From positions 92,325 through 156,324 of the forward strand of contig JAGORM010000002.1 in the NCBI GenBank assembly GCA_018062815.1: DNA of 64,000 bases, in the 5' to 3' direction. Position 1 is the stretch's first letter. Each line of letters opens with the position of its first letter. This document shows, one piece after another, positions 1-19,079 of this stretch. A program made the position numbers and the translations under genes. Source of the stretch: Candidatus Levyibacteriota bacterium. Lineage in GTDB: Bacteria; Patescibacteriota; Microgenomatia; Levybacterales; GWA1-39-11. Under the pieces are notes generated by a model. That model was given only the letters and a program-made list of their open reading frames with translations. It had not been told where the DNA came from and ran no database searches.

Positions 1-516
1 GAGGTGTCTTATTAAGTTAAGAAACGAGTGCAACCCCTATCTTGTGTTAAATATTCACAAGAGACTGCCCCGATTTTATCGGGGAGGAAGGAGGGGCGGA
101 CGTCAAGTCCGCATGGCCCTTATACCTTGGGCTACACACACCCTACAATGGCGAAAAACAATGCGTCGCAAGCCGGTAACGGCAAGCTAATCGCTGAAAT
201 TTCGCCTCAGTTCAGATCGAGGTCTGAAATTCGACCTCGTGAAGTCGGAATTGGTAGTAATCGCAAATCAGCAGGTTGCGGTGAATACGTTCTCGGGTCT
301 TGTACACACCGCCCGTCAAGGCAGCAAAGTCGGAAGCTATCGAATCCCACCTTTCTGTGTTTGATTTTAAGTATAGTTTTAAATCATTTTGAGATTTGAT
401 TTATTAAGCTAACTTTTTAATCGATCGTAGAAAGGTGGGAGAGATAGAGTTCGATGATGAGGCTTAAGTCGTAACAAGGTATCCCTAGCCGAAGCTGGGG
501 ATGGATCACCTCCTTT
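1..516 (+). rRNA. rrs: 16S ribosomal RNA, partial 3' end (about E. coli position 1070 to the end), with an AT-rich insertion at the tip of helix 44
   Basis: Conserved blocks are gcaacccctatc, ggaggaaggaggggcggacgtcaagtc, gggctacacacaccctacaatgg, gaagtcggaatt.gtagtaatcg, gtacacaccgcccgtca, aagtcgtaacaaggta and 3' ggatcacctcctttct (anti-SD). About 60 nt extra (tgtgtttgattttaag...cgatcgta) sit between cccacctttc and gaaaggtggg. Confidence 0.9.
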
Positions 517-766: not shown

Positions 767-841
767 TGGAGGTACGGACGGGATTTGAACCCGTGAATGG
801 CGGTTTTGCAGACCGCTGCGTTACCACTTCGCCACCGTACC
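767..841 (-). tRNA. tRNA-Cys (anticodon GCA), CCA encoded
   Basis: Minus strand reads GGTACGGTGGCGAAGTGGTAACGCAGCGGTCTGCAAAACCGCCATTCACGGGTTCAAATCCCGTCCGTACCTCCA. It folds as a cloverleaf with anticodon loop CTGCAAA, a 3-bp D-stem, T-loop TTCAAAT and discriminator U typical of tRNA-Cys. Confidence 0.85.
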
Positions 842-1556: not shown

Positions 1557-1628
1557 TGGGTCGTAATGGAGTCGGACCATTCGCCTCTTTCTTATCAGGA
1601 AAGCGTTCTACCGCTGAACTAACGACCC
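1557..1628 (-). tRNA. tRNA-Ile (anticodon GAU), no encoded CCA
   Basis: Minus strand reads GGGTCGTTAGTTCAGCGGTAGAACGCTTTCCTGATAAGAAAGAGGCGAATGGTCCGACTCCATTACGACCCA. It has a canonical D-arm (GTTC AGCGGTA GAAC), anticodon loop CTGATAA and T-stem AATGG/CCATT. The T-loop TCCGACT is slightly atypical. Confidence 0.7.
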
Positions 1629-1829: not shown

Positions 1830-2576
1830 TTAGAGGAGGAAGATAATAATTCCACCTATTACTGTTATTACAATTCCGCCAATGATTCCGACCGTAGCTC
1901 CTATGGATCCACTAGGAGGGATAGTAGGTTGAATGGGCTGGCTAGTCGGAATAACAGGGTTGTTAACTATTGGCGGTGGGTTATTCACTGGAGGATTAAC
2001 CACAACCGGTGTTTTTGTAGGCGATGGAGTAGGAGTAGGCGTCAGTGTAGGAGTAGGCGTAGGAGTAGGTATTTTTGTTGGTGTAGGTGAGGGAGTAGGA
2101 GTAGGCGTCAGTGTAGGAGTAGGCGTAGGAGTGCTTACAGGAATAGTAGGGGTTGGGGTTGCCGTTGGAGGTGGAGGGGTGCAAGAACTGGTAGCACTTC
2201 CAACGCCACTGGGTCCGCATGTATTTTTTGCTATAACCTCACATCTGTATGATTTTCCTTCCTCTGGTTGGAATGTGATAGAAGTTGCCGTGGTGTTGCC
2301 TGCGAGTAATTGTGTATTTGTTGACAGGTCTATAATCTTATAATCATATGATGTTGCCCCCGATACCGCGTTCCATGAGCATTTTCCCGCATCAACTGGA
2401 CATGCATTAGGGGCTTGAGAGATGCGTTGAGGTGGCTGGGGTGTAGTTATTTTTTGAATAAGAAAAACCAGTGTCGGAATAACAATCACTAATGTAACGA
2501 TTCCTATAATAAGTATTTTTTTCTTTAGTTTTGTATTCATATTATTGACATATTCCGCTATAAATTGGCAAACCAT
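1830..2576 (-). CDS. surface protein with an N-terminal TM helix, an FN3-like domain, a Pro/Thr-rich repeat linker and a C-terminal hydrophobic anchor
   Basis: N-term MNTKLKKKILIIGIVTLVIVIPTLVF (likely true start near 2540). The linker has PTPTPTLTPTPTPSPT repeated. The C-terminal IGGIVITVIGGIIIFLL is hydrophobic. Confidence 0.55.
   Translation of the reverse strand: MVCQFIAEYVNNMNTKLKKKILIIGIVTLVIVIPTLVFLIQKITTPQPPQRISQAPNACPVDAGKCSWNAVSGATSYDYKIIDLSTNTQLLAGNTTATSITFQPEEGKSYRCEVIAKNTCGPSGVGSATSSCTPPPPTATPTPTIPVSTPTPTPTLTPTPTPSPTPTKIPTPTPTPTLTPTPTPSPTKTPVVVNPPVNNPPPIVNNPVIPTSQPIQPTIPPSGSIGATVGIIGGIVITVIGGIIIFLL
2030..2160. repeat. approximately 60-bp tandem direct repeat (2 copies) encoding the PTPTPTLTPTPTPSPT linker
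   Basis: gtaggagtaggcgtcagtgtaggagtaggcgtaggagt recurs about 60 bp apart within the CDS. Confidence 0.6.
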
Positions 2577-3549
2577 TTATATTAGACACGCTACAAATAC
2601 CGCTTATACAATCCGTAGGTACAGAGCATGAAGATCCTGGTTTTCCAACATTACTTTTAGGAGTTGGGGTAGCTGTTGGAGCTCTTGTTGGAGTAACTGT
2701 TGGTTGATTCCCCGTTGGGGTTATTGGTGTCTGATCTCCTGAAGTGGGAGAAGGAATAGGTGTGCTTATTTTAGGTGTAGGAGTAGGTATTACGCTTGAT
2801 CCGCCATCACAGCCGATACAGGTAACAATTACGCCTGCAGGAGTTCCAGGTACAGGACATGCTAACGTAGGCGTAGGAGTTCCAGGTACGTTTGTTGGCG
2901 GTGGGGTATTTCCAGGGGGTTGAGTTACTCCTACGGTAGGAGTAGGTATTTTTGTAGGCGATGGTGTTGGGGTAGATTCTGTTGTTGGTGTAGGCGAGGG
3001 TGTTGGAGGAGTTTCACAGTCAAAATAGAAAAAGAATGACATTTCCGTTCCGTTCCTACTTTTTATATTGTCTGACTGTGTTGCGTCTGGAAGATATACA
3101 TCAGGTGTCCCATCGCCTGCATACACCCTACATGTACCGTTAAATGATCCACCTGAGAAATAAGCGTTTACCTGAAGATTATCATCGCAGCCACCTGAAC
3201 TGCACCCAATTGTTTGGATGTCCCCATATGAGGCTGTGCCATTAAATGGTGAAGTAGTAGTTGAGTCTGATCTTTTTAAACATTTTACCTCGCTGGTGCA
3301 GGCAGGGGCTCCAACATCAATTCTAAAGACTTGATTTGGAGGAATATTCTTACCAGTTATCTTGAAATTAAGCCCAACAGAGTCTACAAAGTTTACTCCC
3401 GGGTAAATTTCAGATACAGGTACATTTCCTGCCCCTGGGCAAGTGTCCCAACTCTTTGCGCAAGCAACATTGTCAGAGGTGTTTATGCCAATAAAATAGA
3501 GTGCTATAAAAAATACGACCCCTATAAATATTTTTTTAATTCTGTTCAT
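2542..3549 (-). CDS. secreted protein with a signal peptide, Pro/Thr-rich linkers and a Cys-rich C-terminal knot
   Basis: N-term MNRIKKIFIGVVFFIALYFIG has the hydrophobic h-region of a signal peptide. PTPSPT tracts follow. The C-term reads SSCSVPTDCISGICS...SGICQ. Confidence 0.5.
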   Translation of the reverse strand: MNRIKKIFIGVVFFIALYFIGINTSDNVACAKSWDTCPGAGNVPVSEIYPGVNFVDSVGLNFKITGKNIPPNQVFRIDVGAPACTSEVKCLKRSDSTTTSPFNGTASYGDIQTIGCSSGGCDDNLQVNAYFSGGSFNGTCRVYAGDGTPDVYLPDATQSDNIKSRNGTEMSFFFYFDCETPPTPSPTPTTESTPTPSPTKIPTPTVGVTQPPGNTPPPTNVPGTPTPTLACPVPGTPAGVIVTCIGCDGGSSVIPTPTPKISTPIPSPTSGDQTPITPTGNQPTVTPTRAPTATPTPKSNVGKPGSSCSVPTDCISGICSVSNINGLPIYSGICQ

Positions 3550-3550
3550 A

Positions 3551-4405
3551 TCATCTTGAACTGTCTATGTACTGATTTACAGTATCATACTTTGAATTAT
3601 TTGCTTCTTTAACTTGAGCTAATATAATAGATCCGCCTGGGGATACTAAAACTTGAGATGTTTGACCTGGTTTAAGCATAAAAAATGCATCTTTAAATAA
3701 CGGATTCCAACTTGAATTTTTAGTTACATATTCATTTGTGAAAAGCTTTATTGTTGGGTCAAAGCTTGCAGAATTTTTAATTTGATTATATGCTTCTTCT
3801 AAGCTTTCTCCTTGTGTTGTGAGTGCACGAATTTGATTGAGAGTGTCTACGGCCTCACTTGCGTCTTTATCATAGGTGTCACTAAGTGGATTTTTAAAAA
3901 CGCTCACAAAATCTATAGTTCTTGAGTTAACAACCTGTTTTTCTAAACTATCCTCAGTTTTATTTTGAAGTGTTTGGTAGCTAGCGTCTTCGGTGGAGGA
4001 AATTTTAGAATTTGAAATTCCTGCTTTAATTGCTGCCTGTCTAATCTGAATGTTTTCTGCCGCGGCAGCGCGCAGTTTTGGATCGTTTTTTGCCTGATCG
4101 TAGTATGGTCCCCATATTTTTTTCATTTCACTATCTATTTCTGCTTTTGTTAAGGATGATGTAAGAGACTTTTCTTCAACGCTTACAGTGTTTTGGGTTT
4201 GGGTATTCAATTGATTAGATAAAAACAAAAAGGCGCCAACTGGTACTATAACAAGAAATCCAAGTATAACTCCTAACACATAAAACTTATTTGGCGAAAA
4301 TTTTTTATAAGACGGTGGATGAATATTTGCAGTATTCTCCATCTGAAGGTTTCTTTGCTGAATATATTTTTCGTATCTGTCTTTAAATTGATTTTGTGGA
4401 TCCAT
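3551..4405 (-). CDS. membrane-anchored protein with a degenerate PpiC-type (parvulin/SurA-like) C-terminal domain
   Basis: Single TM (FYVLGVILGFLVIVPVGAFLFL). C-term FMLKPGQTSQVLVSPGGSIILAQVKE loosely matches the parvulin FxLKPGEISxPVxTxxGYHIIKV. Confidence 0.4.
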   Translation of the reverse strand: MDPQNQFKDRYEKYIQQRNLQMENTANIHPPSYKKFSPNKFYVLGVILGFLVIVPVGAFLFLSNQLNTQTQNTVSVEEKSLTSSLTKAEIDSEMKKIWGPYYDQAKNDPKLRAAAAENIQIRQAAIKAGISNSKISSTEDASYQTLQNKTEDSLEKQVVNSRTIDFVSVFKNPLSDTYDKDASEAVDTLNQIRALTTQGESLEEAYNQIKNSASFDPTIKLFTNEYVTKNSSWNPLFKDAFFMLKPGQTSQVLVSPGGSIILAQVKEANNSKYDTVNQYIDSSR

Positions 4406-4476
4406 AAAGAAATAAAACCGATAAATTCGGGTACTTCTTTATAGTAGAGAGAAAGGGAAAAAGTGTCAAGGAGAAG

Positions 4477-5439
4477 TTAATCACCTCTTCTTGTTGCAAA
4501 TCCGCGAAGAAGTATGTTTAAATCCCGTGGATCCATGACTCCGTTATCATTTAAGTCAGAAAGTACTTTATATTCGTTTGTGCAATCTGTTCCAGCATAG
4601 CATGACAAAAGAATAGAATAGTCATTTATGTCTAATAAATTATTTGAAGATCCTTCTGATTGAATATCACCTGAGACCACCACAACAGGAGGTGTAGTCG
4701 CGGTTATACTTTGTGATAACTGATGAACTCCGGGTATAGTTTTTGTGAGTGAGTTTGCGGCGCGCACTTTTATGGTGTAAGGTCCGCTTGCAATATTATT
4801 AAATATTGCGTTTCCCTTATATACACCATTGTCATAGGTAAGTGTTGCGGTTGTTTTTCCTGCTTCAGTATTTTGCTCATCATATGCGTATACATCAAAT
4901 GCTCTGGAGGGGTGTTGCGGTTGGTTATTTTCTCCCAATGCAGTGTTTGAGCCAATTCCAGGAAGGGAAACTGCAAGAGTTATTGCTGCACCCTGTGATG
5001 TGCTCGGTGTTGTACTTAAAGCAGGAGAGGGTATGGGTGTTGCTGTAGGATTTGGAGTTGGAGTAACCATAATGCACTGAATGCAGTTGGTTTGATTTGG
5101 ATTATTAGGCGAGTCTTGGCAGGATTTTGCGAAACTTCCCTGATAGGGACCAGAGGGAATGTACTGCCAACATGAATATTGTCCGACTTCACAGGAGACA
5201 TGGTCGGTTCCGCCGCAATACTTAACTAATGTAGCGGAAGAAGGATTTTCGGATTCTGAGTTAGTTGTTGTAAAGTCCACGGAAGCTGCACGTTGACGGA
5301 TATCTTGCTGTTGGTTTGTAAGCATAACCGTTACCGGGATAGAAAGAATAAGAACAACAATTATCAGAGACCCTATCACCCTTTTTTTGGAAGAAAGGAA
5401 AAGTTCTTCAAAAATACTGCCAAAAGAGCTTGGATTCAT
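4477..5439 (-). CDS. secreted Pro/Thr-rich protein with a C-terminal dockerin-like Ca-binding repeat
   Basis: N-terminal TM is followed by LTNQQQDIRQRAAS. The C-terminus has GDIQSEGSSNNLLDINDYSILLSCYAG and SDLNDNGVMDPRDLNILLRGF. The second segment fits the dockerin loop D-x-N-x-N-G-x-x-D-x-x-D-L-x-x-L-L. Confidence 0.55.
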   Translation of the reverse strand: MNPSSFGSIFEELFLSSKKRVIGSLIIVVLILSIPVTVMLTNQQQDIRQRAASVDFTTTNSESENPSSATLVKYCGGTDHVSCEVGQYSCWQYIPSGPYQGSFAKSCQDSPNNPNQTNCIQCIMVTPTPNPTATPIPSPALSTTPSTSQGAAITLAVSLPGIGSNTALGENNQPQHPSRAFDVYAYDEQNTEAGKTTATLTYDNGVYKGNAIFNNIASGPYTIKVRAANSLTKTIPGVHQLSQSITATTPPVVVVSGDIQSEGSSNNLLDINDYSILLSCYAGTDCTNEYKVLSDLNDNGVMDPRDLNILLRGFATRRGD

Positions 5440-5517
5440 ATACTAATCATAGGTAGATTTTTTTATTTTTGCAAGACCTTGGGATTTGCTGTTTTATAAA
5501 AGTGCAGAATTTTAGAT

Positions 5518-5964
5518 TTAGTTTTCTGTAGTTGAAACAGTACAGGATGCAAGAGCGTTAGGTAAATTGTTCTCCATAGGTTTAGACGGATCAAGAAGTG
5601 ATATTTTCCAAGTAGTTTCAGGTTTATCAAATTTATAGATTATTGTGTCTTCCTTTTTTTCAACAATTGAATATCCATCTGCGGGTTCAATGTATGGTTC
5701 AGGTGCATATGGGTATGAGACTACTAAAAGTTCAGATGTTTCCCCCGGTCTTATTGTTCCAGGCGTAAAGATACATGCGGGTGTACTATCTGCTGCTTGT
5801 TGTCTGACATCTTGCTGCTGATTTGCAAGATAAAATGTTAAGGGGACAGCACCTAACACAAACAATACAAAAAACACGCTAATTGTTCTTTGCGGAGAGG
5901 AAAATAGTGCTTTTCCTAGTACATACCCAATTGAGCGTTTTTCAACAACTTTCATTCCATACAT
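5518..5964 (-). CDS. small secreted protein sharing the TM-NQQQDxRQxAA N-terminal module with the 4477..5439 protein
   Basis: The N-terminus reads VFFVLFVLGAVPLTFYLANQQQDVRQQAAD. Confidence 0.45.
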   Translation of the reverse strand: MYGMKVVEKRSIGYVLGKALFSSPQRTISVFFVLFVLGAVPLTFYLANQQQDVRQQAADSTPACIFTPGTIRPGETSELLVVSYPYAPEPYIEPADGYSIVEKKEDTIIYKFDKPETTWKISLLDPSKPMENNLPNALASCTVSTTEN

Positions 5965-6075
5965 ATCATAGTAACGTTTTTTTTATTTTGCAAGAAGAAA
6001 ATGTTACTTGCGAAATTATCCGGATTTGGATAGTATTGTTCCATACGTTCACTTTGGTAGAAAGTTTTTAAAATT

Positions 6076-6648
6076 ATGGTACTTTCAGACAGAGATATAA
6101 AAAAAGCATTAGAGGAGAAACGAATTGTTATCTCTCCCCAGCCTGACATATTAACTCAACTAGGATCTTGCTCAATAGATTTACGATTAGGAAATTTGTT
6201 TAGAATTTTCGATCACAGTAAGTATCCGTTCATAGATCCATACAAAAAAGATTACGGTGCAGATATAACACGTGAAGTAGAACTTAATGGTACAGACCAG
6301 TTTATTATGCAACCTGGAGATTTTGTGCTTGCCGTAACAATGGAAAAAGTAACAATTCCTGATAATCTGATGGGTAGATTAGAGGGTAGATCGTCATTGG
6401 GGAGGATGGGAATAGTTGTTCATTCGACCGCATCTATTTTTGATCCGGGGTGGAATGGGAAATGTGTTTTAGAATTGGGTAATTTAGGGCGTATGGCTGT
6501 TGCCCTTACTCCTGGGATGAGAATTTGTGCAATGACCTTTGAAGAGTTAAGTTCGCCCTCAGAAATGCCATACAGTAAAAGACAGGACGCAAAATACGTT
6601 ATGCAAGAAGGGCCAATAGAAAGCAAAATTGCGCAAGAGAGCCAGTAG
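6076..6648 (+). CDS. dcd: dCTP deaminase
   Basis: MVLSDRDIKKALEEKRIVISP...SIDLRLGNLFRIF...SSLGRMGIVVH...FDPGWNG matches Dcd/dUTPase-fold signatures. Confidence 0.8.
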   Translation: MVLSDRDIKKALEEKRIVISPQPDILTQLGSCSIDLRLGNLFRIFDHSKYPFIDPYKKDYGADITREVELNGTDQFIMQPGDFVLAVTMEKVTIPDNLMGRLEGRSSLGRMGIVVHSTASIFDPGWNGKCVLELGNLGRMAVALTPGMRICAMTFEELSSPSEMPYSKRQDAKYVMQEGPIESKIAQESQ

Positions 6649-6710
6649 TAGCAATTAGATAGTCGTATATATTACATATTTGAGAATTTATACTTACTAC
6701 ATACTGCTTA

Positions 6711-7406
6711 ATGCATAATACTATTATGAAATACAATATAAATCTTGATATATCACTTAAAGAAAACCCATATCCTGGTTCTTATATAGCTCTTGAAGGA
6801 ATAGATGGAAGTGGGAAAACAACTCAGGTAGAATTGCTTGCAAAATACTTTAGGTCTCTTGGAAAAGAAGTAGTAACAACCAGGGAGCCAAGAAAAGAAG
6901 GACTAATTGGTGATTTAGTTCAGAAGGTGCTTTTAGGAAAGGAAAAATTACCCTCGGTTTCGCTACAGTATCTTTTCTCCGCGGATAGATCAGCGCACCA
7001 CGAAGAACTTGTAGAGCCGTCTTTAAAAGAGGGGAAGATTGTAATCTCTGATAGATGTTTTTGGTCGGCAATTGTTTATGGAATACTTGACAGAACAGGC
7101 GGTAAGTATGACACTAACGTTTCTGATTTATTATTAATTTCACAATCAATTCTTTCTATGTATCATCAATTCATCATCCCTGACCATACGTTTTATCTTA
7201 GAATTTCTCTTGAAACGGCAATTAAAAGACTGAGTGGGAAAAAAGAAACTGTAGAAATTTATGAGGAAAAAAGTAAACTTGAAAAACTTATTACTGGGTA
7301 TGACTTCTTAGAGAAAAAGTTTTCAGATAACATAATAACGTTAAGTGGTGAAGGGGATACTGGTATGGTCACAAAACGTATTTTAGAAAGGATTAAAGAT
7401 AAGTGA
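6711..7406 (+). CDS. tmk: thymidylate (dTMP) kinase
   Basis: P-loop IALEGIDGSGKTTQVELLAKYF, then DRCFWSAIVYG (the DR(Y/F)xxS motif). Confidence 0.85.
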   Translation: MHNTIMKYNINLDISLKENPYPGSYIALEGIDGSGKTTQVELLAKYFRSLGKEVVTTREPRKEGLIGDLVQKVLLGKEKLPSVSLQYLFSADRSAHHEELVEPSLKEGKIVISDRCFWSAIVYGILDRTGGKYDTNVSDLLLISQSILSMYHQFIIPDHTFYLRISLETAIKRLSGKKETVEIYEEKSKLEKLITGYDFLEKKFSDNIITLSGEGDTGMVTKRILERIKDK

Positions 7407-7942
7407 TTTTAGAACCCAAGTTGCTTTTACAATTAGTTAAGAAAAATAAACTTGTTGAAAATCTTGCGGATAGGGAGTTAACAAATCCAGAGGGTGCAGG
7501 ATTTGATCTTCGAATTGGTAAGGTTTTTAAACTTCAGGGAGACTCATTTTTAGGAATTGATGAGCGTAAAACTCCAGATGTAAAACTTGTTGCAGAATTT
7601 AATCCTAAAAAGATATCTAAAATTGTTATAAAGCCGGGAGAAATTTATCTGACAGAAACATATGAAAAATTTAATATGCCGCTTGATTTAGTCGGGATTC
7701 TAAAGCCCAGAACAACACTTCAAAGGTCGGGAATTATTGCGCGTATGGCAATTGTTGACCCGGGGTATAGTGGGACGGTTCATCCGCTTTTATATAATGC
7801 CGGACCGGCAACTGTGACAATTGAAATGGGTGCGCGGTATATTTTTGCAATGTTTATGGAAATAAAAGGAAAAGGAAGTCAGTATAGAGGGCAATGGCAA
7901 GGTGGACGCGTCGCCGCAACAAAAAAAGAGAGACAAGTTTAA
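7403..7942 (+). CDS. second dCTP deaminase/dUTPase-fold protein; possibly a Dcd-type dUTP diphosphatase
   Basis: GAGFDLRIGKVF...KPRTTLQRSGIIARMAIVDPGYSG shows the Dcd/Dut family jelly-roll motifs but is distinct from 6076..6648. The start overlaps the tmk stop by 4 bp. Confidence 0.65.
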   Translation: MILEPKLLLQLVKKNKLVENLADRELTNPEGAGFDLRIGKVFKLQGDSFLGIDERKTPDVKLVAEFNPKKISKIVIKPGEIYLTETYEKFNMPLDLVGILKPRTTLQRSGIIARMAIVDPGYSGTVHPLLYNAGPATVTIEMGARYIFAMFMEIKGKGSQYRGQWQGGRVAATKKERQV

Positions 7943-8597
7943 CTCCTCTATGAGTTCTTACAGAGCATACATCTTTGATCTAGATGGAACGATTACTAAT
8001 ACTATGGTAGTTTGGTTAGATCTTTTTAGGCAAGCACTTGCTCATTTTAAGGTCCCATCACCAGAAGATTCTATGATTATGAAATACACCCATGATTGGA
8101 GAGAGATGGTAAACCTTGGGCTACCAGAAGAAAAAGTCTTGGAATTTTCTTCTTACATGACAGAAAAAGCACATACCCATTTGCCTGAAGCAGCATTTCA
8201 TGTGGGTGCTTATGAAACGCTCGATTCACTGAAAAACAACAGGGAAAAAATTGCAATATTTTCCAATATGGATCGTCCGTTATTTGAATCTGCTATAAAA
8301 CATAGGAATTTACATACCATTACGTCTGTTACGATTGCTGGAACTGACGTGCCTCACAGAAAGCCAAAACCTGACGGAATACTACGCGCATTGGAACTTC
8401 TAAAAATTCCAAAAAAAGAACATACAAACGTTGTTTATATAGGAGATAAAGAAACTGATATTCAATCAGCGCGCGCTGCTGGGGTTACTAGTATCTTGTA
8501 CTATCCAGCATCCCATCAGAACATGTATAAATTAGAGGAATTAAAGCTGCATAAACCGGATCGCATTATTACGGATTGGTCACAGCTCTTAACTTGA
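7902..8597 (+). CDS. HAD-superfamily hydrolase (phosphatase; plausible nucleotidase)
   Basis: Motif I reads YIFDLDGTITNT and motif IV reads VYIGDKETDIQSARAAG. The true start is probably the internal Met MSSYRAYIF near 7947. Confidence 0.7.
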   Translation: MDASPQQKKRDKFNSSMSSYRAYIFDLDGTITNTMVVWLDLFRQALAHFKVPSPEDSMIMKYTHDWREMVNLGLPEEKVLEFSSYMTEKAHTHLPEAAFHVGAYETLDSLKNNREKIAIFSNMDRPLFESAIKHRNLHTITSVTIAGTDVPHRKPKPDGILRALELLKIPKKEHTNVVYIGDKETDIQSARAAGVTSILYYPASHQNMYKLEELKLHKPDRIITDWSQLLT

Positions 8598-8634
8598 AAA
8601 AACGCTTTAAAGAGTTTATAAATAAACAGTCATT

Positions 8635-9627
8635 ATGGCAAACCAAAAACATCAGGAATATCAATATTTAGACTTACTGAAAGAAGCCTTAGAGCATGGG
8701 GAACGCAAGGTTGATCGTGGGACAGATATAAAGCTGTATAGTTTGTTTGGTCGTCAAACTCGATACGACTTGTCAGAAGGATTTCCGCTTTTGACCACTA
8801 AAAAAGTTTACTGGAAGGGTGTTATTCATGAACTTGCGTGGTTTATGTCAGGCGACACAAATATTAAATATTTAGTGGATAACAACGTACATATCTGGGA
8901 CGACTACCCATACAAAATTTTTAAAACAAAAAATGCTAAATCTAAATTCACAAAAGATGAGTTTATTGAAAAAATTCGGGAGGACGCAAAATTTGCAAAA
9001 AAGTGGGGAGACCTTCCTCGGATATATGGAGAAATGTGGAGGAAATGGCCTACCCATTCGGCAAGCTCAGGGCGAGCTAAAAAACCTCGAACAATTGATC
9101 AGTTGGCCTGGGTGATGCAGGAGTTAAAAGAGGATCCAGATGCAAAAAATGCAATTGTTACTTCCTGGAATCCAGAATATATGTATACCATGGCGTTGAA
9201 AAAGGAGGCAAATAGATTTCCCATCTGCCACAACATGTATCAAGTTTCCAGGCGTGGGAACAAGTTATCATTACAGCTCTATCAAAGAAGCGCAGACTTG
9301 TTCTTAGGAGTTCCATTTAATATTGCTTCATATTCTCTGCTTATCATTATTCTTGCAAACATTATGGATTTAGAACCCGGAGAATTTATTCATACCTTTG
9401 GAGACGCGCATATTTATGAAAATCATATACCACAGGTAAAAGAACAGTTAACTCGTGTGCCAAGACCTTTTCCAAAGATAAAAATAAATCGGAAAATAAA
9501 ATCTATTGATGATTTTAAAGCAGAGGATATTGAGCTTTTAGAATATGATCCGTATCCTGCCATGAAAGCAGAGCTGACAGTTGCGGGAGGTCTGTATGAC
9601 AAAAAAACCGGCAAAATGGCCGGATGA
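8635..9627 (+). CDS. thyA: thymidylate synthase (ThyA), long form with an about 50-aa insertion
   Basis: LLTTKKVYWKGVIHELAWFMSGDTNIKYL, the active-site region FPICHNMYQ, and DLFLGVPFNIASYSLL. Confidence 0.85.
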   Translation: MANQKHQEYQYLDLLKEALEHGERKVDRGTDIKLYSLFGRQTRYDLSEGFPLLTTKKVYWKGVIHELAWFMSGDTNIKYLVDNNVHIWDDYPYKIFKTKNAKSKFTKDEFIEKIREDAKFAKKWGDLPRIYGEMWRKWPTHSASSGRAKKPRTIDQLAWVMQELKEDPDAKNAIVTSWNPEYMYTMALKKEANRFPICHNMYQVSRRGNKLSLQLYQRSADLFLGVPFNIASYSLLIIILANIMDLEPGEFIHTFGDAHIYENHIPQVKEQLTRVPRPFPKIKINRKIKSIDDFKAEDIELLEYDPYPAMKAELTVAGGLYDKKTGKMAG

Positions 9628-9662
9628 GGTTGGTAGTAAGTAGACAGTAGTATGTATTAAGT

Positions 9663-10037
9663 ATGAATACGAAAATACATTCATTTACAGACTTGAATGC
9701 TTGGAAAGAGTCTCACATGTTAGTACTTCAAATATATAAAATAACAAAAGAATTTTCTGCGGATGAAAAGTTTGGACTTGTAGACCAGATGAGAAGATGT
9801 GCGGTGTCAATTAGTAGTAATATTGCGGAAGGATTTTTCAGGAGAACAAAAAAAGAAAAAGCCCAATTTTTCTATATGGCACTTGGATCTTTAACAGAAC
9901 TTCAGAATCAGCTATTAATCTCTCGTGATTTAACGTATATTGATAACAAGACGTTTACGGATTTAGCCGAGCAAACAGTAACCATAAGTAAACTTGTTAA
10001 TGGTTTGGTGAAGAGTTCGAGGAATTTTAATACATAA
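9663..10037 (+). CDS. four-helix-bundle protein (23S rRNA intervening-sequence protein family)
   Basis: DLNAWKESHMLVLQIYKITKEF...DQMRRCAVSISSNIAEGF is the hallmark pattern of that family. Confidence 0.65.
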   Translation: MNTKIHSFTDLNAWKESHMLVLQIYKITKEFSADEKFGLVDQMRRCAVSISSNIAEGFFRRTKKEKAQFFYMALGSLTELQNQLLISRDLTYIDNKTFTDLAEQTVTISKLVNGLVKSSRNFNT

Positions 10038-10047
10038 TACTTACTAC

Positions 10048-10488
10048 ATGATACACAATACTCGTATTTCTACCGTTGCAGCGCTTGCGTTTAAAGATGA
10101 TAAAGTTCTTTTAGTAAGGCATGGAGAAGCGGCCCATCATTTAACAGGCGTATATGGCTTACCAGGAGGAAGACTTGACGAGGGTGAAAATCTTTTAGAC
10201 GGTGCAGCACGCGAATTTCAAGAAGAAACTGGGCTTATTGCTGATAAATCATCAATGGTTCAGATTCCAATCAGTTACGAAGCAGAAATTCCCAGAAAAG
10301 GTGGGGAAATTTTAAGTACATCATGGAGCGTGTTTTTAGTAAAAAATTACCAAGGAGATTTGTTGGATTCAAAAGACACTGATGAAACAATTCCCGAATG
10401 GGTTGAAGTAGGCAGCGTAGCAGAACTTAATTTGCTGCCGAATACAGAAGATGCTATAAAGGAGGGGCAACAAATTCTTAACTTATAA
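10048..10488 (+). CDS. NUDIX hydrolase
   Basis: The Nudix box reads GLPGGRLDEGENLLDGAAREFQEETGL. Confidence 0.75.
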   Translation: MIHNTRISTVAALAFKDDKVLLVRHGEAAHHLTGVYGLPGGRLDEGENLLDGAAREFQEETGLIADKSSMVQIPISYEAEIPRKGGEILSTSWSVFLVKNYQGDLLDSKDTDETIPEWVEVGSVAELNLLPNTEDAIKEGQQILNL

Positions 10489-10491
10489 TTC

Positions 10492-11058
10492 ATGATACAA
10501 AATACCAGGGTTAGTATAATTGCGGCAATTGGGAAAAACAGAGAACTTGGAAAAGAAGATAGACTGCTGTGGGAAATTCCAGAGGATGCAAAATTTTTTA
10601 GAGACATGACACGCGGGCATGTGAATATTATGGGAAGGAAAACCTATGAATCTTTGCTTCACTATTACAAAGGAAAGCCCATGCCAAAAAGAGTAAGTGT
10701 TGTAGTGACTCGTGACGCAAAATATAAAGCAGCCGATGGTGTATTTGTTTTTACTGACATGAAAGAGGCGGTAGAGTTTGCCAAAAAAAAAGAGCAGGAG
10801 ATTTCTAAGATTGAAGAGTATAAGAATGCACGAGACCTAAGGTCTCTGGAGGCTGAAGTGTATGACATAGGTGGAGGACAGATTTATGCGCTTGGTCTTC
10901 CCTTTGCTGATAGATTATATCTGACATTTGTAGACGGTGAATTTCCTCAGGCAGATGCCTTTTTTCCGGAATTTCCAGAATTTACTAAAGTTGTGGGGGA
11001 GAAAAAAGGTTTAAAGGGTGAATATGATTACACATTTAAAACTTTAGAACGGGGATGA
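10492..11058 (+). CDS. folA: dihydrofolate reductase
   Basis: VSIIAAIGKNRELGKEDRLLWEIPEDAKFFRDMTRGHVNIMGRKTYES and the C-terminal DIGGGQIYALGLP. Confidence 0.85.
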   Translation: MIQNTRVSIIAAIGKNRELGKEDRLLWEIPEDAKFFRDMTRGHVNIMGRKTYESLLHYYKGKPMPKRVSVVVTRDAKYKAADGVFVFTDMKEAVEFAKKKEQEISKIEEYKNARDLRSLEAEVYDIGGGQIYALGLPFADRLYLTFVDGEFPQADAFFPEFPEFTKVVGEKKGLKGEYDYTFKTLERG

Positions 11059-11119: not shown

Positions 11120-11575
11120 ATGAAAAAGCTGAAGAAGTATGAATTTTATCCACCTCACAAGCATTTTGTGCGTTTTCTTAAGCGTGTTGAATATAAAAGA
11201 TATTTTTTGTACTTAATCCGTTGGCAATTATCAACTCCTATACTTGCACCCATTGTAGCCTGGGTAAAACATTCACCATCTATTCTTGGTACTCCTGAAG
11301 ATTGGTATGCTGCGGGAATCGCAAATCTTATAGGAGGTCTTATTTTCTTTTGGGTTGACCTTTTTATATTCAAATCTCAATCTTTGGCTACACAATGGGA
11401 AATTAAAGAAAATATTAGATGTACGGATTGCAGAAAGATTGCTCGTGGTTATAGACTAGTTAAAACACCAAAATATGACAGGACAAAAGATATAAATCCT
11501 GAATTTAGGTGTGAAAATTGTTCTATGAAAAAGTCAAAAAAATTAAGAGAAAGAGGTATTTCTACTGAAGGGTGA
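11120..11575 (+). CDS. hypothetical membrane protein with a C-terminal CxxC...CxxC zinc-ribbon
   Basis: Two predicted TM helices, then CTDCRK...CENCSMKK. Confidence 0.4.
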   Translation: MKKLKKYEFYPPHKHFVRFLKRVEYKRYFLYLIRWQLSTPILAPIVAWVKHSPSILGTPEDWYAAGIANLIGGLIFFWVDLFIFKSQSLATQWEIKENIRCTDCRKIARGYRLVKTPKYDRTKDINPEFRCENCSMKKSKKLRERGISTEG

Positions 11576-12194
11576 TCGTGAGGGGTCGAGTATCTTTAAG
11601 GATAGAGCCCTGAGTAGTATTTGTTGTCACCTTTGTTTCTTTCCCAAATGTAATACTTGCAGAAGCACTTGTTCCTTTTATCACAGTAAATGCTAATTTC
11701 CCAATACTTCCGGTCCCATTTACAGGCAAGCCGTTTGTGCTTATAACTTCTGCAAAAGTTAGCTTTCCGGGAACTGAAGTATCTGTAAATAGTGTCATAT
11801 GAGATCCGGGATTGTTTCCGAAAAGTGAATTAGTGGTTTCAGACGGAAGAATCTTAACATTTGTTATCTGTTTTGGGTCATAAAGAATTTCTGCTTGGGC
11901 ACCAGTTATAGGGGTACCTGCCGTTTCAACAATTATGTCAACGGTCGCTGATGGTGTAGTTGAGGTTGAAAGGTCTAACACTGCAGGAAAAAAAGAGACG
12001 CTAGCCGTTTTCATAACTGTTGGGGTGGGGGTAACTGTTGCAACTGTAACTGCTGGTTTATTTTGGGATCCAATCCAAATGGAAAGCCCGAGTAGTGCAA
12101 CCGTTAGAGTAACTAAAAAAGATATCAGAATTAATGTTTTTCCTGGGATACTCCTCATATATTTATTATGCCCATAAGGGCAAAAAAATTGCAA
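11562..12194 (-). CDS. secreted or membrane-anchored cohesin-like domain protein
   Basis: N-terminal TM and a PT linker, then VDIIVETAGTPITGAQAEILYDPKQITNVKI...GKLTFAEVISTNG...GSIGKLAFTVIKGT...ITFGKE. This resembles the type-I cohesin pattern (xFxYDPxxLxxxxV ... G.F.F...G.AxxxFxV). Confidence 0.45.
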   Translation of the reverse strand: MQFFCPYGHNKYMRSIPGKTLILISFLVTLTVALLGLSIWIGSQNKPAVTVATVTPTPTVMKTASVSFFPAVLDLSTSTTPSATVDIIVETAGTPITGAQAEILYDPKQITNVKILPSETTNSLFGNNPGSHMTLFTDTSVPGKLTFAEVISTNGLPVNGTGSIGKLAFTVIKGTSASASITFGKETKVTTNTTQGSILKDTRPLTITLQ

Positions 12195-18482: not shown

Positions 18483-19079
18483 TTATTTTGTGTTAATTTC
18501 CAGATTTACTTTTCCTAGTACAACATTTGGAGTTTGTGGAGAGGACGCAAAAGATGCTTGGTCAATTTTTATAATTGCGGAAGTTGTTCCCTGTGTAAGT
18601 TTTCCGGTTACTTTTGCAATTATTCCCTTCCCTTTTGGGTATGGAATTGAAGTGGGTATCAGATAAGACTGGCTAATTGTTCCTTGTTCAGGGTTGCTTT
18701 GTTTGATTCCTGCGGTGAGATTTACAGAATAGGATAAGGCAGAGGAAGGATCATTTACGGATATAATTTTAACATTACTAACTTGAAGCGGATCATACGA
18801 TAGCGCAATTGTAATTTTAGAGACGGGGATGCCATAGCTATCAAATAGTATGCTTGAGGTAAATGTGGACTGTTTATTTATGGTTATTGTGTTGGGTGAG
18901 AAAGAAACCATCATAGTAGGAGATTCTTGTTTGGGTGTTTGAGTAGGAACTATTTTTTGAGTTAATGAAGGAGGAGGGGTATTTTCATTGAGAAATACAA
19001 AAAAAACAATAAATATAAAAATAACTATAGATACTAAAAATAAAATAAGCGTCAATTTTTTTTTGAAAACACCAGTCAT
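18483..19079 (-). CDS. membrane-anchored cohesin-like domain protein
   Basis: ITIALSYDPLQVSNVKIISV...GKGIIAKVTGKLTQGTTSAIIKIDQASF resembles the cohesin pattern and the 11562..12194 protein. Confidence 0.4.
   Translation of the reverse strand: MTGVFKKKLTLILFLVSIVIFIFIVFFVFLNENTPPPSLTQKIVPTQTPKQESPTMMVSFSPNTITINKQSTFTSSILFDSYGIPVSKITIALSYDPLQVSNVKIISVNDPSSALSYSVNLTAGIKQSNPEQGTISQSYLIPTSIPYPKGKGIIAKVTGKLTQGTTSAIIKIDQASFASSPQTPNVVLGKVNLEINTK

Follow-up and report, generated by a model that had tools for sequence, protein, structure and literature searches.

CPR bacteria are largely episymbionts of which few have been cultured; the organization of their surface and the way in which they attach to their hosts are largely unknown, and most of their surface proteins remain unannotated. 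A protein of 320 residues encoded in a 64-kb stretch of DNA (referred to here as the window) raises the question of whether a Candidatus Levybacteria MAG (CPR, Microgenomates) encodes a genuine dockerin and, if so, to which partner this module attaches its carrier. A preliminary description of the window, which correctly took it to come from a CPR-like genome, had proposed a dockerin at the C-terminus of a Pro/Thr-rich protein and a surface complex with two cohesin-like proteins encoded elsewhere in the same stretch.

Organization and Conservation of the XDoc Gene

The protein is built, in this order, of a leader, a Cys-rich domain, a Pro/Thr-rich (PT) linker, an X-module and a dockerin (Table 1). 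The C-terminal peptide quoted in the preliminary description (GDIQSEGSSNNLLDINDYSILLSCYAG...SDLNDNGVMDPRDLNILLRGFATRRGD) is present in this ORF, and the Pro/Thr-rich character attributed to the protein resides in the linker that precedes it. A dN/dS of 0.13 for the whole gene against its ortholog demonstrates that the gene, named here XDoc after its two C-terminal modules, is real and under purifying selection; its orthologs share 79–80% identity and conserved synteny. Among the segments of the protein, the PT linker has the highest dN/dS (0.32), while that of the Cys-rich domain is 0.07. The latter domain, for which Pfam gives no match, corresponds to the region that differs from member to member in the family, and it is conserved only in two close orthologs.

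Table 1. Coordinates of the XDoc gene, of the segments of its product and of the other genes discussed.
Feature	Position	Strand	Description	Basis
XDoc surface-protein gene	4477..5439	(-)	320 aa, ATG start, stop 4477..4479	ORF listing
N-terminal leader	5284..5439	(-)	aa 1-52	homologue alignment
Cys-rich "cargo" domain	5071..5283	(-)	aa 53-123, 6 Cys	sequence
Pro/Thr-rich linker	4984..5070	(-)	aa 124-152	sequence
X-module	4690..4983	(-)	aa 153-250	AF2 model, alignment to 4u3s_B and 2b59_B X-modules, Foldseek
Dockerin	4480..4689	(-)	aa 251-320	profile matches to solved dockerins, model helices
Putative Ca-loop 1	4621..4668	(-)	DIQSEGSSNNLLDIND, aa 258-273, atypical	
Cys280-x5-Cys286	4579..4602	(-)	between dockerin helices 1 and 2	co-variation
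Putative Ca-loop 2	4522..4557	(-)	DLNDNGVMDPRD, aa 295-306, canonical D1, N3, N5, G6, D9, D12	
Upstream neighbour	5518..5964	(-)	148 aa	leader HMM, E=5.4e-16
Coh1 (NCBI KBC00_01725)	11562..12158	(-)	cohesin, 198 aa from conserved start MRSIPGK; ORF 11562..12194, cohesin domain at about 11565..12014	
Coh2 (NCBI KBC00_01760, MBP6913313.1)	18483..19079	(-)	198 aa; cohesin module at about 18486..18917	Coh1-family HMM

The leader follows the pattern EE.F.SSKKR, then a hydrophobic helix (..LSIPVT..) and then QQQDIRQRA, and the hydropathy peak lies at residues 21–39. It is presumed to be a Sec signal peptide or a signal anchor with a conserved motif behind the helix. Its HMM matches 98 of the 150 representatives of the XDoc family. 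No match to the leader was obtained in Pfam or NCBIfam, the motif was not found in a literature search, and its profile retrieved 10 short fragments and nothing else from a set of 5.8 billion proteins. The upstream neighbour of the XDoc gene also carries this leader, with QQQDVRQQA as its motif, joined to a domain of about 85 residues and no dockerin, and it is kept beside the XDoc gene in seven related loci (L001–L004, L012, L013 and L016).

Identification of the X-Module–Dockerin Dyad

Sequence matches to the PDB, a family profile and a structure model establish that the last ~170 residues of the protein form a type II dyad, in which an Ig-like X-module is joined to a dockerin with two repeats. 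A phmmer search of residues 152–320 against the PDB retrieved the solved XDocs 4u3s_B (E=1.9e-9), 2b59_B (3.9e-6) and 5k39_B (3.3e-4), with alignments over query positions 43–164, which comprise the C-terminal half of the X-module and the dockerin. The family profile matched XDoc dyads at E=3.8e-12, as well as about 25 solved dockerins, and sequence homology to solved XDocs extends over both modules. The dockerin announced in the preliminary description is therefore real and, more precisely, one half of a type II X-module–dockerin dyad.

The AF2 model of both modules (pLDDT 94.9) contains seven strands, at fragment positions 2–8, 28–36, 42–53, 56–62, 69–77, 83–91 and 96–98, with a helical turn at 16–18 between the first two, and three helices in the dockerin at 121–132, 138–144 (short, in the middle) and 154–163. 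The seven-stranded X-module lies directly N-terminal to the dockerin and is packed on it, a topology that fits the published description of XDocs (PMC5141474). In a Foldseek search of the PDB (E=2e-6), the top five structures were all XDoc chains from cohesin complexes (4u3s_B, 4wi0_B, 2b59_B, 5k39_B and 5m0y_B), aligned over 167–171 columns that include both modules. Dockerins are defined by two tandem, antiparallel segments of ~22 residues, in each of which a Ca-binding loop of 12 residues leads into a helix. The window dockerin has two such F-hand loop-helix repeats (sequence repeats at residues 258–285 and 295–316, each with its model helix), with the short helix in the middle, and ends in the conserved RxGD; the paired loop-helix fold for which the preliminary description had suggested a structure prediction is thus present. 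Since homology and model span 170 residues, a chance EF-hand-like motif was rejected as an explanation.

The dockerin profile search also suggested at that time, over residues 250–320, turned out negative. Pfam Dockerin_1 (PF00404) gave nothing for the whole protein or for its C-terminal 69 or 169 residues, even at E≤10, so that the gathering threshold is not reached, and NCBIfam did not find a dockerin in the protein or its C-terminal fragments. Given the phmmer, profile and Foldseek matches, this result represents a failure of sensitivity and not counter-evidence. On the X-module, Pfam yields weak CarboxypepD_reg, SdrD_B and Y_Y_Y matches at residues 190–238, in agreement with the carboxypeptidase-D-like fold published for X-modules (PMC5141474). 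The window protein is not a scaffoldin in the sense of a cohesin-bearing protein with an XDoc at its C-terminus, as it bears no cohesin.

Putative Calcium-Binding Loops and the Cysteine Pair

The window dockerin is expected to bind Ca2+; its two loops differ in how well their ligands are preserved. Loop 2 fits the F-hand pattern at positions 1, 3, 5, 6, 9 and 12, as had been described, and its residues are conserved among the 150 family representatives: D295 in 148, N297 in 133, D or N at position 299 in 148, G300 in 136, D303 in 114 and D306 in 148. Loop 1, already regarded as less canonical, contains a four-residue insertion (GSSN) and has Q260 and E262 instead of N/D at ligand positions 3 and 5. 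This insertion occurs in only 16 of the 150 representatives (134 lack it), D or N occupies all five loop-1 ligand positions (1, 3, 5, 9 and 12) in 81 of them, and the closest orthologs differ at position 5 (N, W, K). The conservation of Ca ligands, proposed earlier as a check, is thus seen in loop 2 (D295, N297, N299, D303 and D306) and is less regular in loop 1.

An equivalent four-residue insertion is found in loop 1 of the Acetivibrio cellulolyticus ScaA XDoc, where it forms a beta-turn (4U3S), yet two Ca2+ ions are bound (PMC5141474). The window dockerin differs from that protein in the Q/E residues that take ligand positions 3 and 5 of its loop 1. Between the first two dockerin helices, Cys280 and Cys286 co-vary, with both present in 140 of the 150 representatives, neither in 8 and a single one in 2, a pattern that suggests that they probably form a disulfide.

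The XDoc Family and Its Genomic Linkage to Cohesins

At a threshold of E≤1e-30, the XDoc family comprises at least 930 clusters (50% identity). In 146 of 150 representatives, the XDoc is the very last part of the polypeptide. Most members share the conserved leader and the RxGD ending, in the general layout of leader, variable cargo, PT linker and XDoc. In a Pfam census of 151 members, Dockerin_1 (counted at E≤0.001) was found in 82, Cohesin in 19, SdrD_B in 19, CAP in 12, fn3 in 8, PAN_4 in 7 and VWA in 6; about one member in eight therefore carries a cohesin in the same polypeptide as the XDoc. Judging from these domain matches, the cargo of the family is adhesin-like (VWA, CAP, PAN, fn3, SdrD_B and cohesin).

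XDoc genes lie directly upstream of a gene for a TM-helix cohesin in three other genomes (L006, L007 and L008). Furthermore, an ortholog of Coh1, one of the two cohesins of the window, is found 4–7 kb from an XDoc gene in L001–L003, L012, L013, L014 and L016; this synteny crosses a housekeeping block, and general collinearity alone might explain it. Among the matches listed there are at least seven related loci, two of them labelled "uncultured Gammaproteobacteria", for which mislabelling is suspected.

Candidate Cohesin Partners in the Window

Both cohesin-like ORFs named in the preliminary description exist, and both encode cohesin homologues. In Coh1, a PT-rich spacer connects the single N-terminal TM helix to a single cohesin module. 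It scores 24.0 bits against Pfam Cohesin (PF00963), for which the cutoff is 24.1 (E=4.9e-5), and the same family is present in 12 of 23 Coh1 homologues; in the PDB, all 19 matches of the Coh1 profile are cohesins. The AF2 model (pLDDT 93.7) is all-beta with the cohesin jelly-roll, and the top 48 structures retrieved with it from the PDB by Foldseek are all cohesins (best 6kgf_C, E=1.8e-9, TM 0.74–0.76). The model is closest to the type I cohesin CohA2 (TM 0.72–0.78, against 0.55–0.65 for type II cohesins), and it lacks the additional helix that, along with beta-flaps, characterizes type II. By its model, Coh1 is structurally closer to type I than to the type II cohesins known to bind XDocs. 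It is a candidate membrane anchor for the XDoc.

In Coh2, an N-terminal TM helix and a spacer precede a cohesin module of divergent sequence. Queried alone, it gave no match in Pfam or the PDB. A Coh1-family HMM built without Coh2 matches it over the entire domain (E=7.7e-11), and BLASTP aligns it to Coh1 with 31% identity (E=1e-6); on this sequence evidence, it is a divergent paralogue of Coh1. The nine-stranded jelly-roll of ~140 residues that defines cohesins is thus recognized in Coh1 by model and sequence and in Coh2 by sequence. The lone hydrophobic helix near the N-terminus of both proteins presumably anchors them to the cell.

The window contains one XDoc and two single-cohesin proteins. 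The XDoc HMM detected no other dockerin among the window proteins at E<0.5, including the 710-residue metalloprotease-like protein encoded upstream of Coh2, which was considered as a possible carrier of a hidden dockerin and rejected.

Proposed Surface Display and Alternative Explanations

The combination of a real dockerin, two real cohesins with TM helices and a CPR genome is best explained by a surface complex, an explanation strengthened by the adjacency of XDoc and cohesin genes in the three other genomes. Specifically, we propose, with a probability of about 0.62, that the secreted Levybacteria XDoc protein is tethered through Coh1/Coh2 in a non-cellulosomal system for the display and scaffolding of surface adhesins. 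Its non-cellulosomal nature is suggested by the adhesin-like cargo and by the cohesins within the family, and the presence of a dockerin and two nearby membrane-anchored cohesins probably reflects surface display rather than cellulose degradation. As a precedent, cohesins and dockerins outside cellulosomes have been suggested to act as adhesins in symbiotic consortia (PMC10553843, PMC10066038).

According to this proposal, the leader would direct Sec export, with probable cleavage after QQQDIRQRA. The dockerin, whose fold is supported by model and homology, would form around Ca2+, with a canonical site 2 and a site 1 that contains the insertion, and would be stabilized by the probable Cys280–Cys286 disulfide and by the tightly packed X-module. 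The one cohesin module present in Coh1, in Coh2 or in each of them would then receive the XDoc, a binding that we infer, while these proteins would presumably be held in the membrane by their hydrophobic helix. The Cys-rich domain would thereby be tethered to the cell surface, projecting on the PT-rich linker. Such a display system plausibly serves attachment to host cells or substrates.

The position of XDoc genes beside TM-cohesin genes in three genomes, the fusion of XDoc and cohesin in 19 of 151 members and the fact that all the dockerins matched in the PDB are cohesin binders make it unlikely that a real XDoc has a partner other than Coh1 and Coh2, acting in trans as an adhesin for a cohesin or receptor on another cell (host or sibling) or for a non-protein ligand. 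This alternative would suit the largely episymbiotic life of CPR bacteria and the resemblance of Coh1 to type I rather than type II cohesins. Moreover, if the leader helix remained uncleaved, the protein would be anchored in the membrane by its own helix, with a different geometry, and its XDoc could face outward. A dockerin-domain protein of the cultured Saccharibacterium Southlakia epibionticum (SEML1_0315) is essential and has been proposed to target host glycans (PMC10633639).

It appears more doubtful still that the dockerin-like fold is a Ca2+-stabilized cap or a C-terminal sorting element without a cohesin partner, next to unrelated cohesin-fold proteins. The near-invariant RxGD end and the strict C-terminal position resemble a sorting signal, loop 1 is degenerate in the clade of the window protein, and a few family members show weak Por_Secre_tail matches (E about 1e-4); however, these matches plausibly stem from the Ig-like X-module, CPR bacteria are monoderm-like and not known to possess T9SS, and the adjacency and fusion of XDocs to cohesins point to a functional pair. 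Finally, a bona fide cellulosome, a polysaccharide-degrading complex in which carbohydrate-active enzymes bearing dockerins join a scaffoldin with several cohesins and a CBM, is very improbable in spite of the cellulosomal scaffoldin XDocs that are the nearest solved relatives and of the interpretation of Microgenomates cohesin and dockerin genes as cellulosome components by Bell et al. 2022 and Geesink et al. 2020 (PMC9123182). The cargo in the window is a 70-residue Cys-rich domain and no enzyme, the Pfam matches of the 151 members include no family of glycoside hydrolases, lyases, esterases or CBMs, and the window encodes two single-module cohesin proteins and no multi-cohesin scaffoldin.

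Comparison with Known Systems

The closest parallels to the window XDoc come from cellulosomes. Like the XDoc of Clostridium (Acetivibrio) thermocellum CipA/ScaA, which pairs with SdbA/ScaF (2B59, 3KCP, 5G5D, 5K39, 5M0Y), it combines a seven-stranded Ig-like X-module with a two-F-hand dockerin that lies at the extreme C-terminus, both similar in sequence (by the profile match) and in dyad geometry (Foldseek TM 0.55–0.66), and it is presumed to be anchored to a cell-bound cohesin. In contrast, its carrier is a 320-residue protein with a tiny Cys-rich domain instead of a multi-cohesin CBM scaffoldin, and its candidate partners are compact, type-I-like proteins without the type II helix, held on an N-terminal TM helix instead of SLH modules. 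The window family also adds the inter-helix Cys pair and the RxGD C-terminus. The best single-sequence match is the A. cellulolyticus ScaA XDoc in complex with ScaB Coh3 (4U3S, 4WI0), but identity to it is only ~23% and its context is that of a cellulosomal adaptor scaffoldin.

The use of these modules outside cellulose degradation is shared with non-cellulosomal cohesins and dockerins (Peer et al. 2009, cited by PMC10066038), such as the cohesin of Archaeoglobus fulgidus (2XDH) and the cohesin-like modules of Clostridium perfringens (2JH2, 2VO8), three structures that are also among the Foldseek neighbours of Coh1, and the adhesin candidates of ANME/SRB and Omnitrophota. Adhesin-type cargo and proposed roles in cell–cell association (PMC10553843, PMC10066038) are likewise common to this group and the window family. 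Unlike these modules, as described, the window family has an X-module dyad, a conserved leader and TM-anchored single cohesins.

Within the same superphylum, annotated cohesin or dockerin domains have been reported for Ca. Shapirobacterales (Microgenomates), with both kinds of gene expressed, for Ca. Roizmanbacterium (Microgenomates), with "cellulosomes" (both in PMC9123182), and for S. epibionticum. The preliminary description was therefore wrong in calling this a lineage without any such report. These reports differ from the present analysis in relying on domain annotation and in interpreting the genes in terms of cellulose or glycan breakdown; as far as their available parts extend, they describe neither the XDoc dyad and the leader nor the membrane-anchored cohesins and the adhesin-type cargo.

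Implications for CPR Surface Biology

The finding is not a major surprise, as it extends a well-understood pair of modules to a superphylum in which cohesin and dockerin genes had already been noted. It shows, however, that a genuine XDoc in a Levybacteria genome is missed by a standard annotation pipeline, since Pfam gives no match, and it calls for caution before cellulose degradation is deduced from the cohesin and dockerin genes of Microgenomates. A family of at least 930 clusters with adhesin-type cargo and candidate membrane-anchored cohesin partners provides a concrete and testable model of surface display in Levybacteria, in which the XDoc–cohesin interaction can be addressed with recombinant domains and no need of culture.

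More tentatively, and at odds below even, Levybacteria, together with related Microgenomates, may have a dedicated surface-assembly system throughout their lineage, made up of a conserved N-terminal sorting leader (SSKKR, TM helix, QQQDIRQRA), hundreds of swappable adhesin-type cargos, single cohesins anchored in the membrane and a C-terminal XDoc with RxGD at its end. If so, "cellulosome" annotations in CPR genomes would be misread, and head-to-tail chains or branched scaffolds could be built from adaptors with both cohesin and XDoc and from proteins with two XDocs. The adhesive surface of these ultra-small episymbionts, and with it their attachment to hosts, would then depend mainly on such a system.

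Identity of the C-terminal module

The surface protein considered here (the XDoc protein) is a 320-aa product starting with ATG; the ORF listing places it where the preliminary description had put it, and its sequence contains the C-terminal peptide quoted there. Its gene shows a dN/dS of 0.13 overall against a 79%-identical ortholog (L002, one of the related loci L001-L016 in other genomes), with every segment below 0.35, and is therefore a real gene under constraint.

Neither the whole protein nor the isolated C-terminus gave a dockerin match in Pfam or NCBIfam, even at E ≤ 10, and aa 190-238 matched Y_Y_Y, SdrD_B and CarboxypepD_reg weakly. When aa 152-320 were compared with all PDB sequences by phmmer, the matches were solved dyads of X-module and dockerin (XDoc) from cellulosomal scaffoldins: A. 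cellulolyticus ScaA (4u3s_B, E=1.9e-9; 4wi0_B, E=2.4e-9), C. thermocellum CipA (2b59_B, 3kcp_A and 5g5d_B, E=4e-6 to 3e-5) and 5k39_B (E=3.3e-4). The alignments cover the whole dockerin together with the C-terminal half of the X-module. With a 25-member family profile, E improved to 3.8e-12 and about 25 ordinary type I dockerins were also matched.

The AlphaFold2 model built from the 25-member alignment is confident (pLDDT 94.9, pTM 0.88), with seven beta-strands, the first two separated by a helical turn, and then three helices. Its best five Foldseek neighbours in the PDB were XDoc chains, all out of type II cohesin-XDoc complexes (E=2.4e-6 to 1.8e-5, TM 0.54-0.66, about 168 columns), and unrelated beta-sandwiches followed below the fifth rank. 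PDB sequence matches, family profile, model and structural neighbours all indicate that the C-terminus is an XDoc dyad, so that the dockerin originally proposed is borne out as more than a dockerin loop.

Features of the window and of related loci (aa, residues of the XDoc protein; TM, transmembrane)
Feature	Position	Strand	Basis or remark
XDoc gene	4477..5439	-	ORF listing
Hydrophobic N-terminal leader	aa 1-52, 5284..5439	-	sequence
Small six-Cys domain	aa 53-123	-	sequence
Pro/Thr-rich linker	aa 124-152	-	sequence
Beta-rich segment	aa 153-250	-	sequence
Dockerin-like tail	aa 251-320	-	sequence
R-x-G-D-COOH end	4480..4491		
Leader, second occurrence	5770..5964	-	
Promoter-like elements	5446..5474; 5965..5993	-	
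Surface-protein genes 1 to 5	1830..5964	-	
Gene 1		-	148-aa leader protein
Gene 2		-	XDoc protein
Gene 3		-	284-aa TM protein, weak PpiC/PrsA-type rotamase similarity
Gene 4		-	335-aa PT- and Cys-rich protein
Gene 5		-	248 aa: fn3-like domain, long PT stretch, C-terminal TM helix
Nucleotide-metabolism block	6076..11058		
Coh1	11562..12194 (conserved start 12158, 198 aa)	-	Pfam, profile, model
Coh2	18483..19079	-	Coh1-family HMM
710-aa secreted protein	19094..21226	-	
16S rRNA gene, 3' part	1..516	+	
tRNA genes	770..841; 1557..1628	-	
Cohesin with two XDoc dyads	L005:4483-6519	+	
Trp-rich dockerin-like protein	L012:8834-9994	+	
XDoc gene, then TM-cohesin gene	L006		cargo: Cys-rich
XDoc gene, then TM-cohesin gene	L007		cargo: VWA + SdrD_B
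XDoc gene, then TM-cohesin gene	L008		cargo: cohesin

Calcium loops and family-specific residues

Conservation was counted over the aligned top 150 representatives of the family. Canonical in sequence, loop 2 (aa 295-306, DLNDNGVMDPRD) is also strongly conserved, with D295, D/N299 and D306 in 148/150 each, G300 in 136, N297 in 133 and D303 in 114. The first repeat had been called less canonical, and it is: the window protein falls in a 16-member subgroup with a four-residue insertion (GSSN, aa 263-266), absent in the other 134, and its third and fifth ligand positions are occupied by Q and E. In 81/150, loop 1 has D/N throughout its five ligand positions. In an alternative register, position 5 is N, W or K across the closest orthologs of the window protein. 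The ScaA XDoc, the best PDB match, has an "unusual four residue insertion" in loop 1 and binds two Ca2+ nonetheless (PMC5141474); because of this likeness, site 1 of the window XDoc may be functional, though uncertainly so.

Between helices 1 and 2, Cys280-x5-Cys286 is complete in 140 representatives, wholly missing in 8 and reduced to a single Cys in 2, a strong co-variation that suggests a disulfide. The extreme C-terminus is R-x-G-D-COOH in 115/150 and ends in GD in 126/150; interface, processing or sorting are its possible roles. Clostridial XDocs aligned to the family have neither such a Cys pair nor this end.

The two cohesins

Both proteins first called cohesin-like, Coh1 and Coh2, proved to belong to a cohesin family. 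Coh1 reaches 24.0 bits against Pfam Cohesin (cutoff 24.1), PF00963 is carried by 12 of its 23 homologues, and all 19 PDB matches of its family profile are cohesins. The 48 nearest PDB neighbours of its all-beta model (pLDDT 93.7) are cohesin modules, headed by C. acetobutylicum CohA2 (Foldseek, E=1.8e-9, TM 0.72-0.78), with type II cohesins at TM 0.55-0.65. Compact and without a helix, the modelled Coh1 is judged to resemble type I cohesins more than type II. Coh2 on its own matched nothing in Pfam or the PDB; a Coh1-family HMM made without it matches it domain-wide at E=7.7e-11.

In each protein a short spacer comes after one strong hydrophobic helix at the N-terminus, and the leader HMM found the leader motif in neither; both have the appearance of single-cohesin proteins anchored in the membrane. 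When all ORFs of the six reading frames were scanned with the HMMs, the 64-kb window yielded exactly one XDoc, two cohesins and two proteins with the leader. Coh1 is identical to KBC00_01725 and Coh2 to KBC00_01760 (MBP6913313.1), proteins of an NCBI "Candidatus Levybacteria bacterium" MAG, and related loci come from Levybacteria MAGs; the "CPR-like" label was therefore correct, the genome belonging to the Microgenomates group.

The gene lying 14 bp 5' of Coh2, the place of XDoc genes relative to cohesins in L006-L008, encodes a very Cys-rich 710-aa protein with an HExxH zinc-metalloprotease motif (HELGHTFGLSHP) and weak Reprolysin and serralysin matches; no dockerin was detectable in it.

The shared leader

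The strongly conserved leader comprises EE.F.SSKKR, a TM helix with LSIPVT, and QQQDIRQRA, and 98 of the top 150 representatives have it. It is common to proteins of unrelated cargo (homologues P0002-P0030, L012), and also occurs on the 148-aa neighbour of the XDoc protein, which has no dockerin. No Pfam or NCBIfam family matched it, a literature search did not find its motif, and its profile retrieved fragments only from protein sets. It may serve as a sorting or processing signal specific to the lineage.

Near-identical promoter-like elements (A-rich run, TTGCAA, 17 nt, TATGAT) lie immediately 5' of both leader-bearing genes. Their -10 hexamers end a few bases from the start codon, which suggests that the transcripts have a very short 5' UTR or none, and that the two genes are possibly co-regulated.

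Family and gene neighbourhood

A search of 1.84 billion representatives (clusters at 50% identity) with the XDoc profile gave 930 clusters at E ≤ 1e-30 and 2292 at E ≤ 1e-10, and in 146 of the top 150 no more than five residues follow the XDoc. Pfam matches among 151 members were Dockerin_1 (82), Cohesin (19), SdrD_B (19), CAP (12), fn3 (8), PAN_4 (7) and VWA (6), with FG-GAP, PKD, Big_7, CARDB and a few others also present.

The window arrangement is found again in L001-L003, L012, L013, L014 and L016, with XDoc identity down to 36%. The shared order is UPP synthase, Coh1, nucleotide-metabolism block, 148-aa leader protein, XDoc protein(s) and PrsA-like protein; L014 is without the leader and PrsA-like genes. 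The conserved block, syntenic in L001-L004 and L012-L016, holds two dCTP deaminase-like genes, deoxynucleoside/thymidylate kinase, thymidylate synthase, NUDIX and DHFR genes and, in several relatives, an inserted 23S_rRNA_IVP-family gene or BrnT/CopG toxin-antitoxin pair. Each of the five successive surface-protein genes codes for an exported or surface protein; the first four keep their order in L001-L004, and the ~283-aa gene comes after the XDoc gene in L012, L013 and L016. Neither a 23S gene nor same-strand tRNAs adjoin the 16S rRNA gene, both tRNA genes being on the opposite strand, and the rRNA genes appear unlinked at this locus.

The L012 protein combines the family leader with a Cys-rich region and an SdrD-like domain. 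At its C-terminus it has a Trp-rich pair of dockerin-like repeats (DDGVVDFLDFQWWKDEF ... DDAIDLLDFQIWKNI) of another kind and no X-module, suggesting that the lineage has a second type of dockerin.

Proposed surface tethering and known systems

Domain identities and topology are established here, as are the anchoring helices, the modular make-up of the family and the gene linkage. In the proposed mechanism, the leader would direct Sec export, with probable cleavage at its conserved motif. The XDoc, presumably held stable by Ca2+, X-module and disulfide, would bind the cohesin of Coh1 and/or Coh2 and so anchor the Cys-rich head at the cell surface via the PT-rich stalk. This tethering of an exported Cys-rich protein, with a role in attachment, is given a probability of roughly 0.6.

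In at least three other genomes (L006, L007, L008), a TM-cohesin gene above the Pfam threshold lies directly 3' of the XDoc gene; that the XDoc's partner instead sits on another cell, or is a ligand other than cohesin, is unlikely. Cohesin and XDoc also share one protein in P0006 and in L005 (N-terminal cohesin, Pfam 24.9 bits, and two tandem dyads), and such members could be adaptors or chain formers; a structural or sorting module without any partner is a still weaker prospect. The L005 record is labelled "uncultured Gammaproteobacteria", perhaps a mislabel given its CPR-like relatives. Glycoside hydrolase, lyase, esterase and CBM families are absent among the Pfam matches listed for the 151 members, and a true cellulosome is very improbable.

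It had been stated that no such system is described in the lineage, which is wrong: Bell et al. 2022 report that Ca. Shapirobacterales express cohesin and dockerin genes, and refer to Geesink et al. 2020 on "cellulosomes" of Ca. Roizmanbacterium (PMC9123182), and Wang et al. 2023 found a dockerin-domain protein of a Saccharibacterium essential (PMC10633639). The available excerpts of these two papers contain no description of the XDoc dyad, anchored cohesins, leader or cargo spectrum. Non-cellulosomal cohesin/dockerin adhesins have precedents in ANME/SRB consortia and Omnitrophota (PMC10553843, PMC10066038).

In outline the window system resembles its nearest known counterparts, the cohesin-XDoc anchors of type II found in C. 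thermocellum and A. cellulolyticus. It differs in that the XDoc carrier is not a scaffoldin, anchoring is by a TM helix instead of SLH modules, the candidate cohesin is type-I-like in architecture and the cargo is of adhesin type. Given such cargo, and since CPR bacteria live as episymbionts, attachment is the most plausible role of the XDoc-cohesin system.
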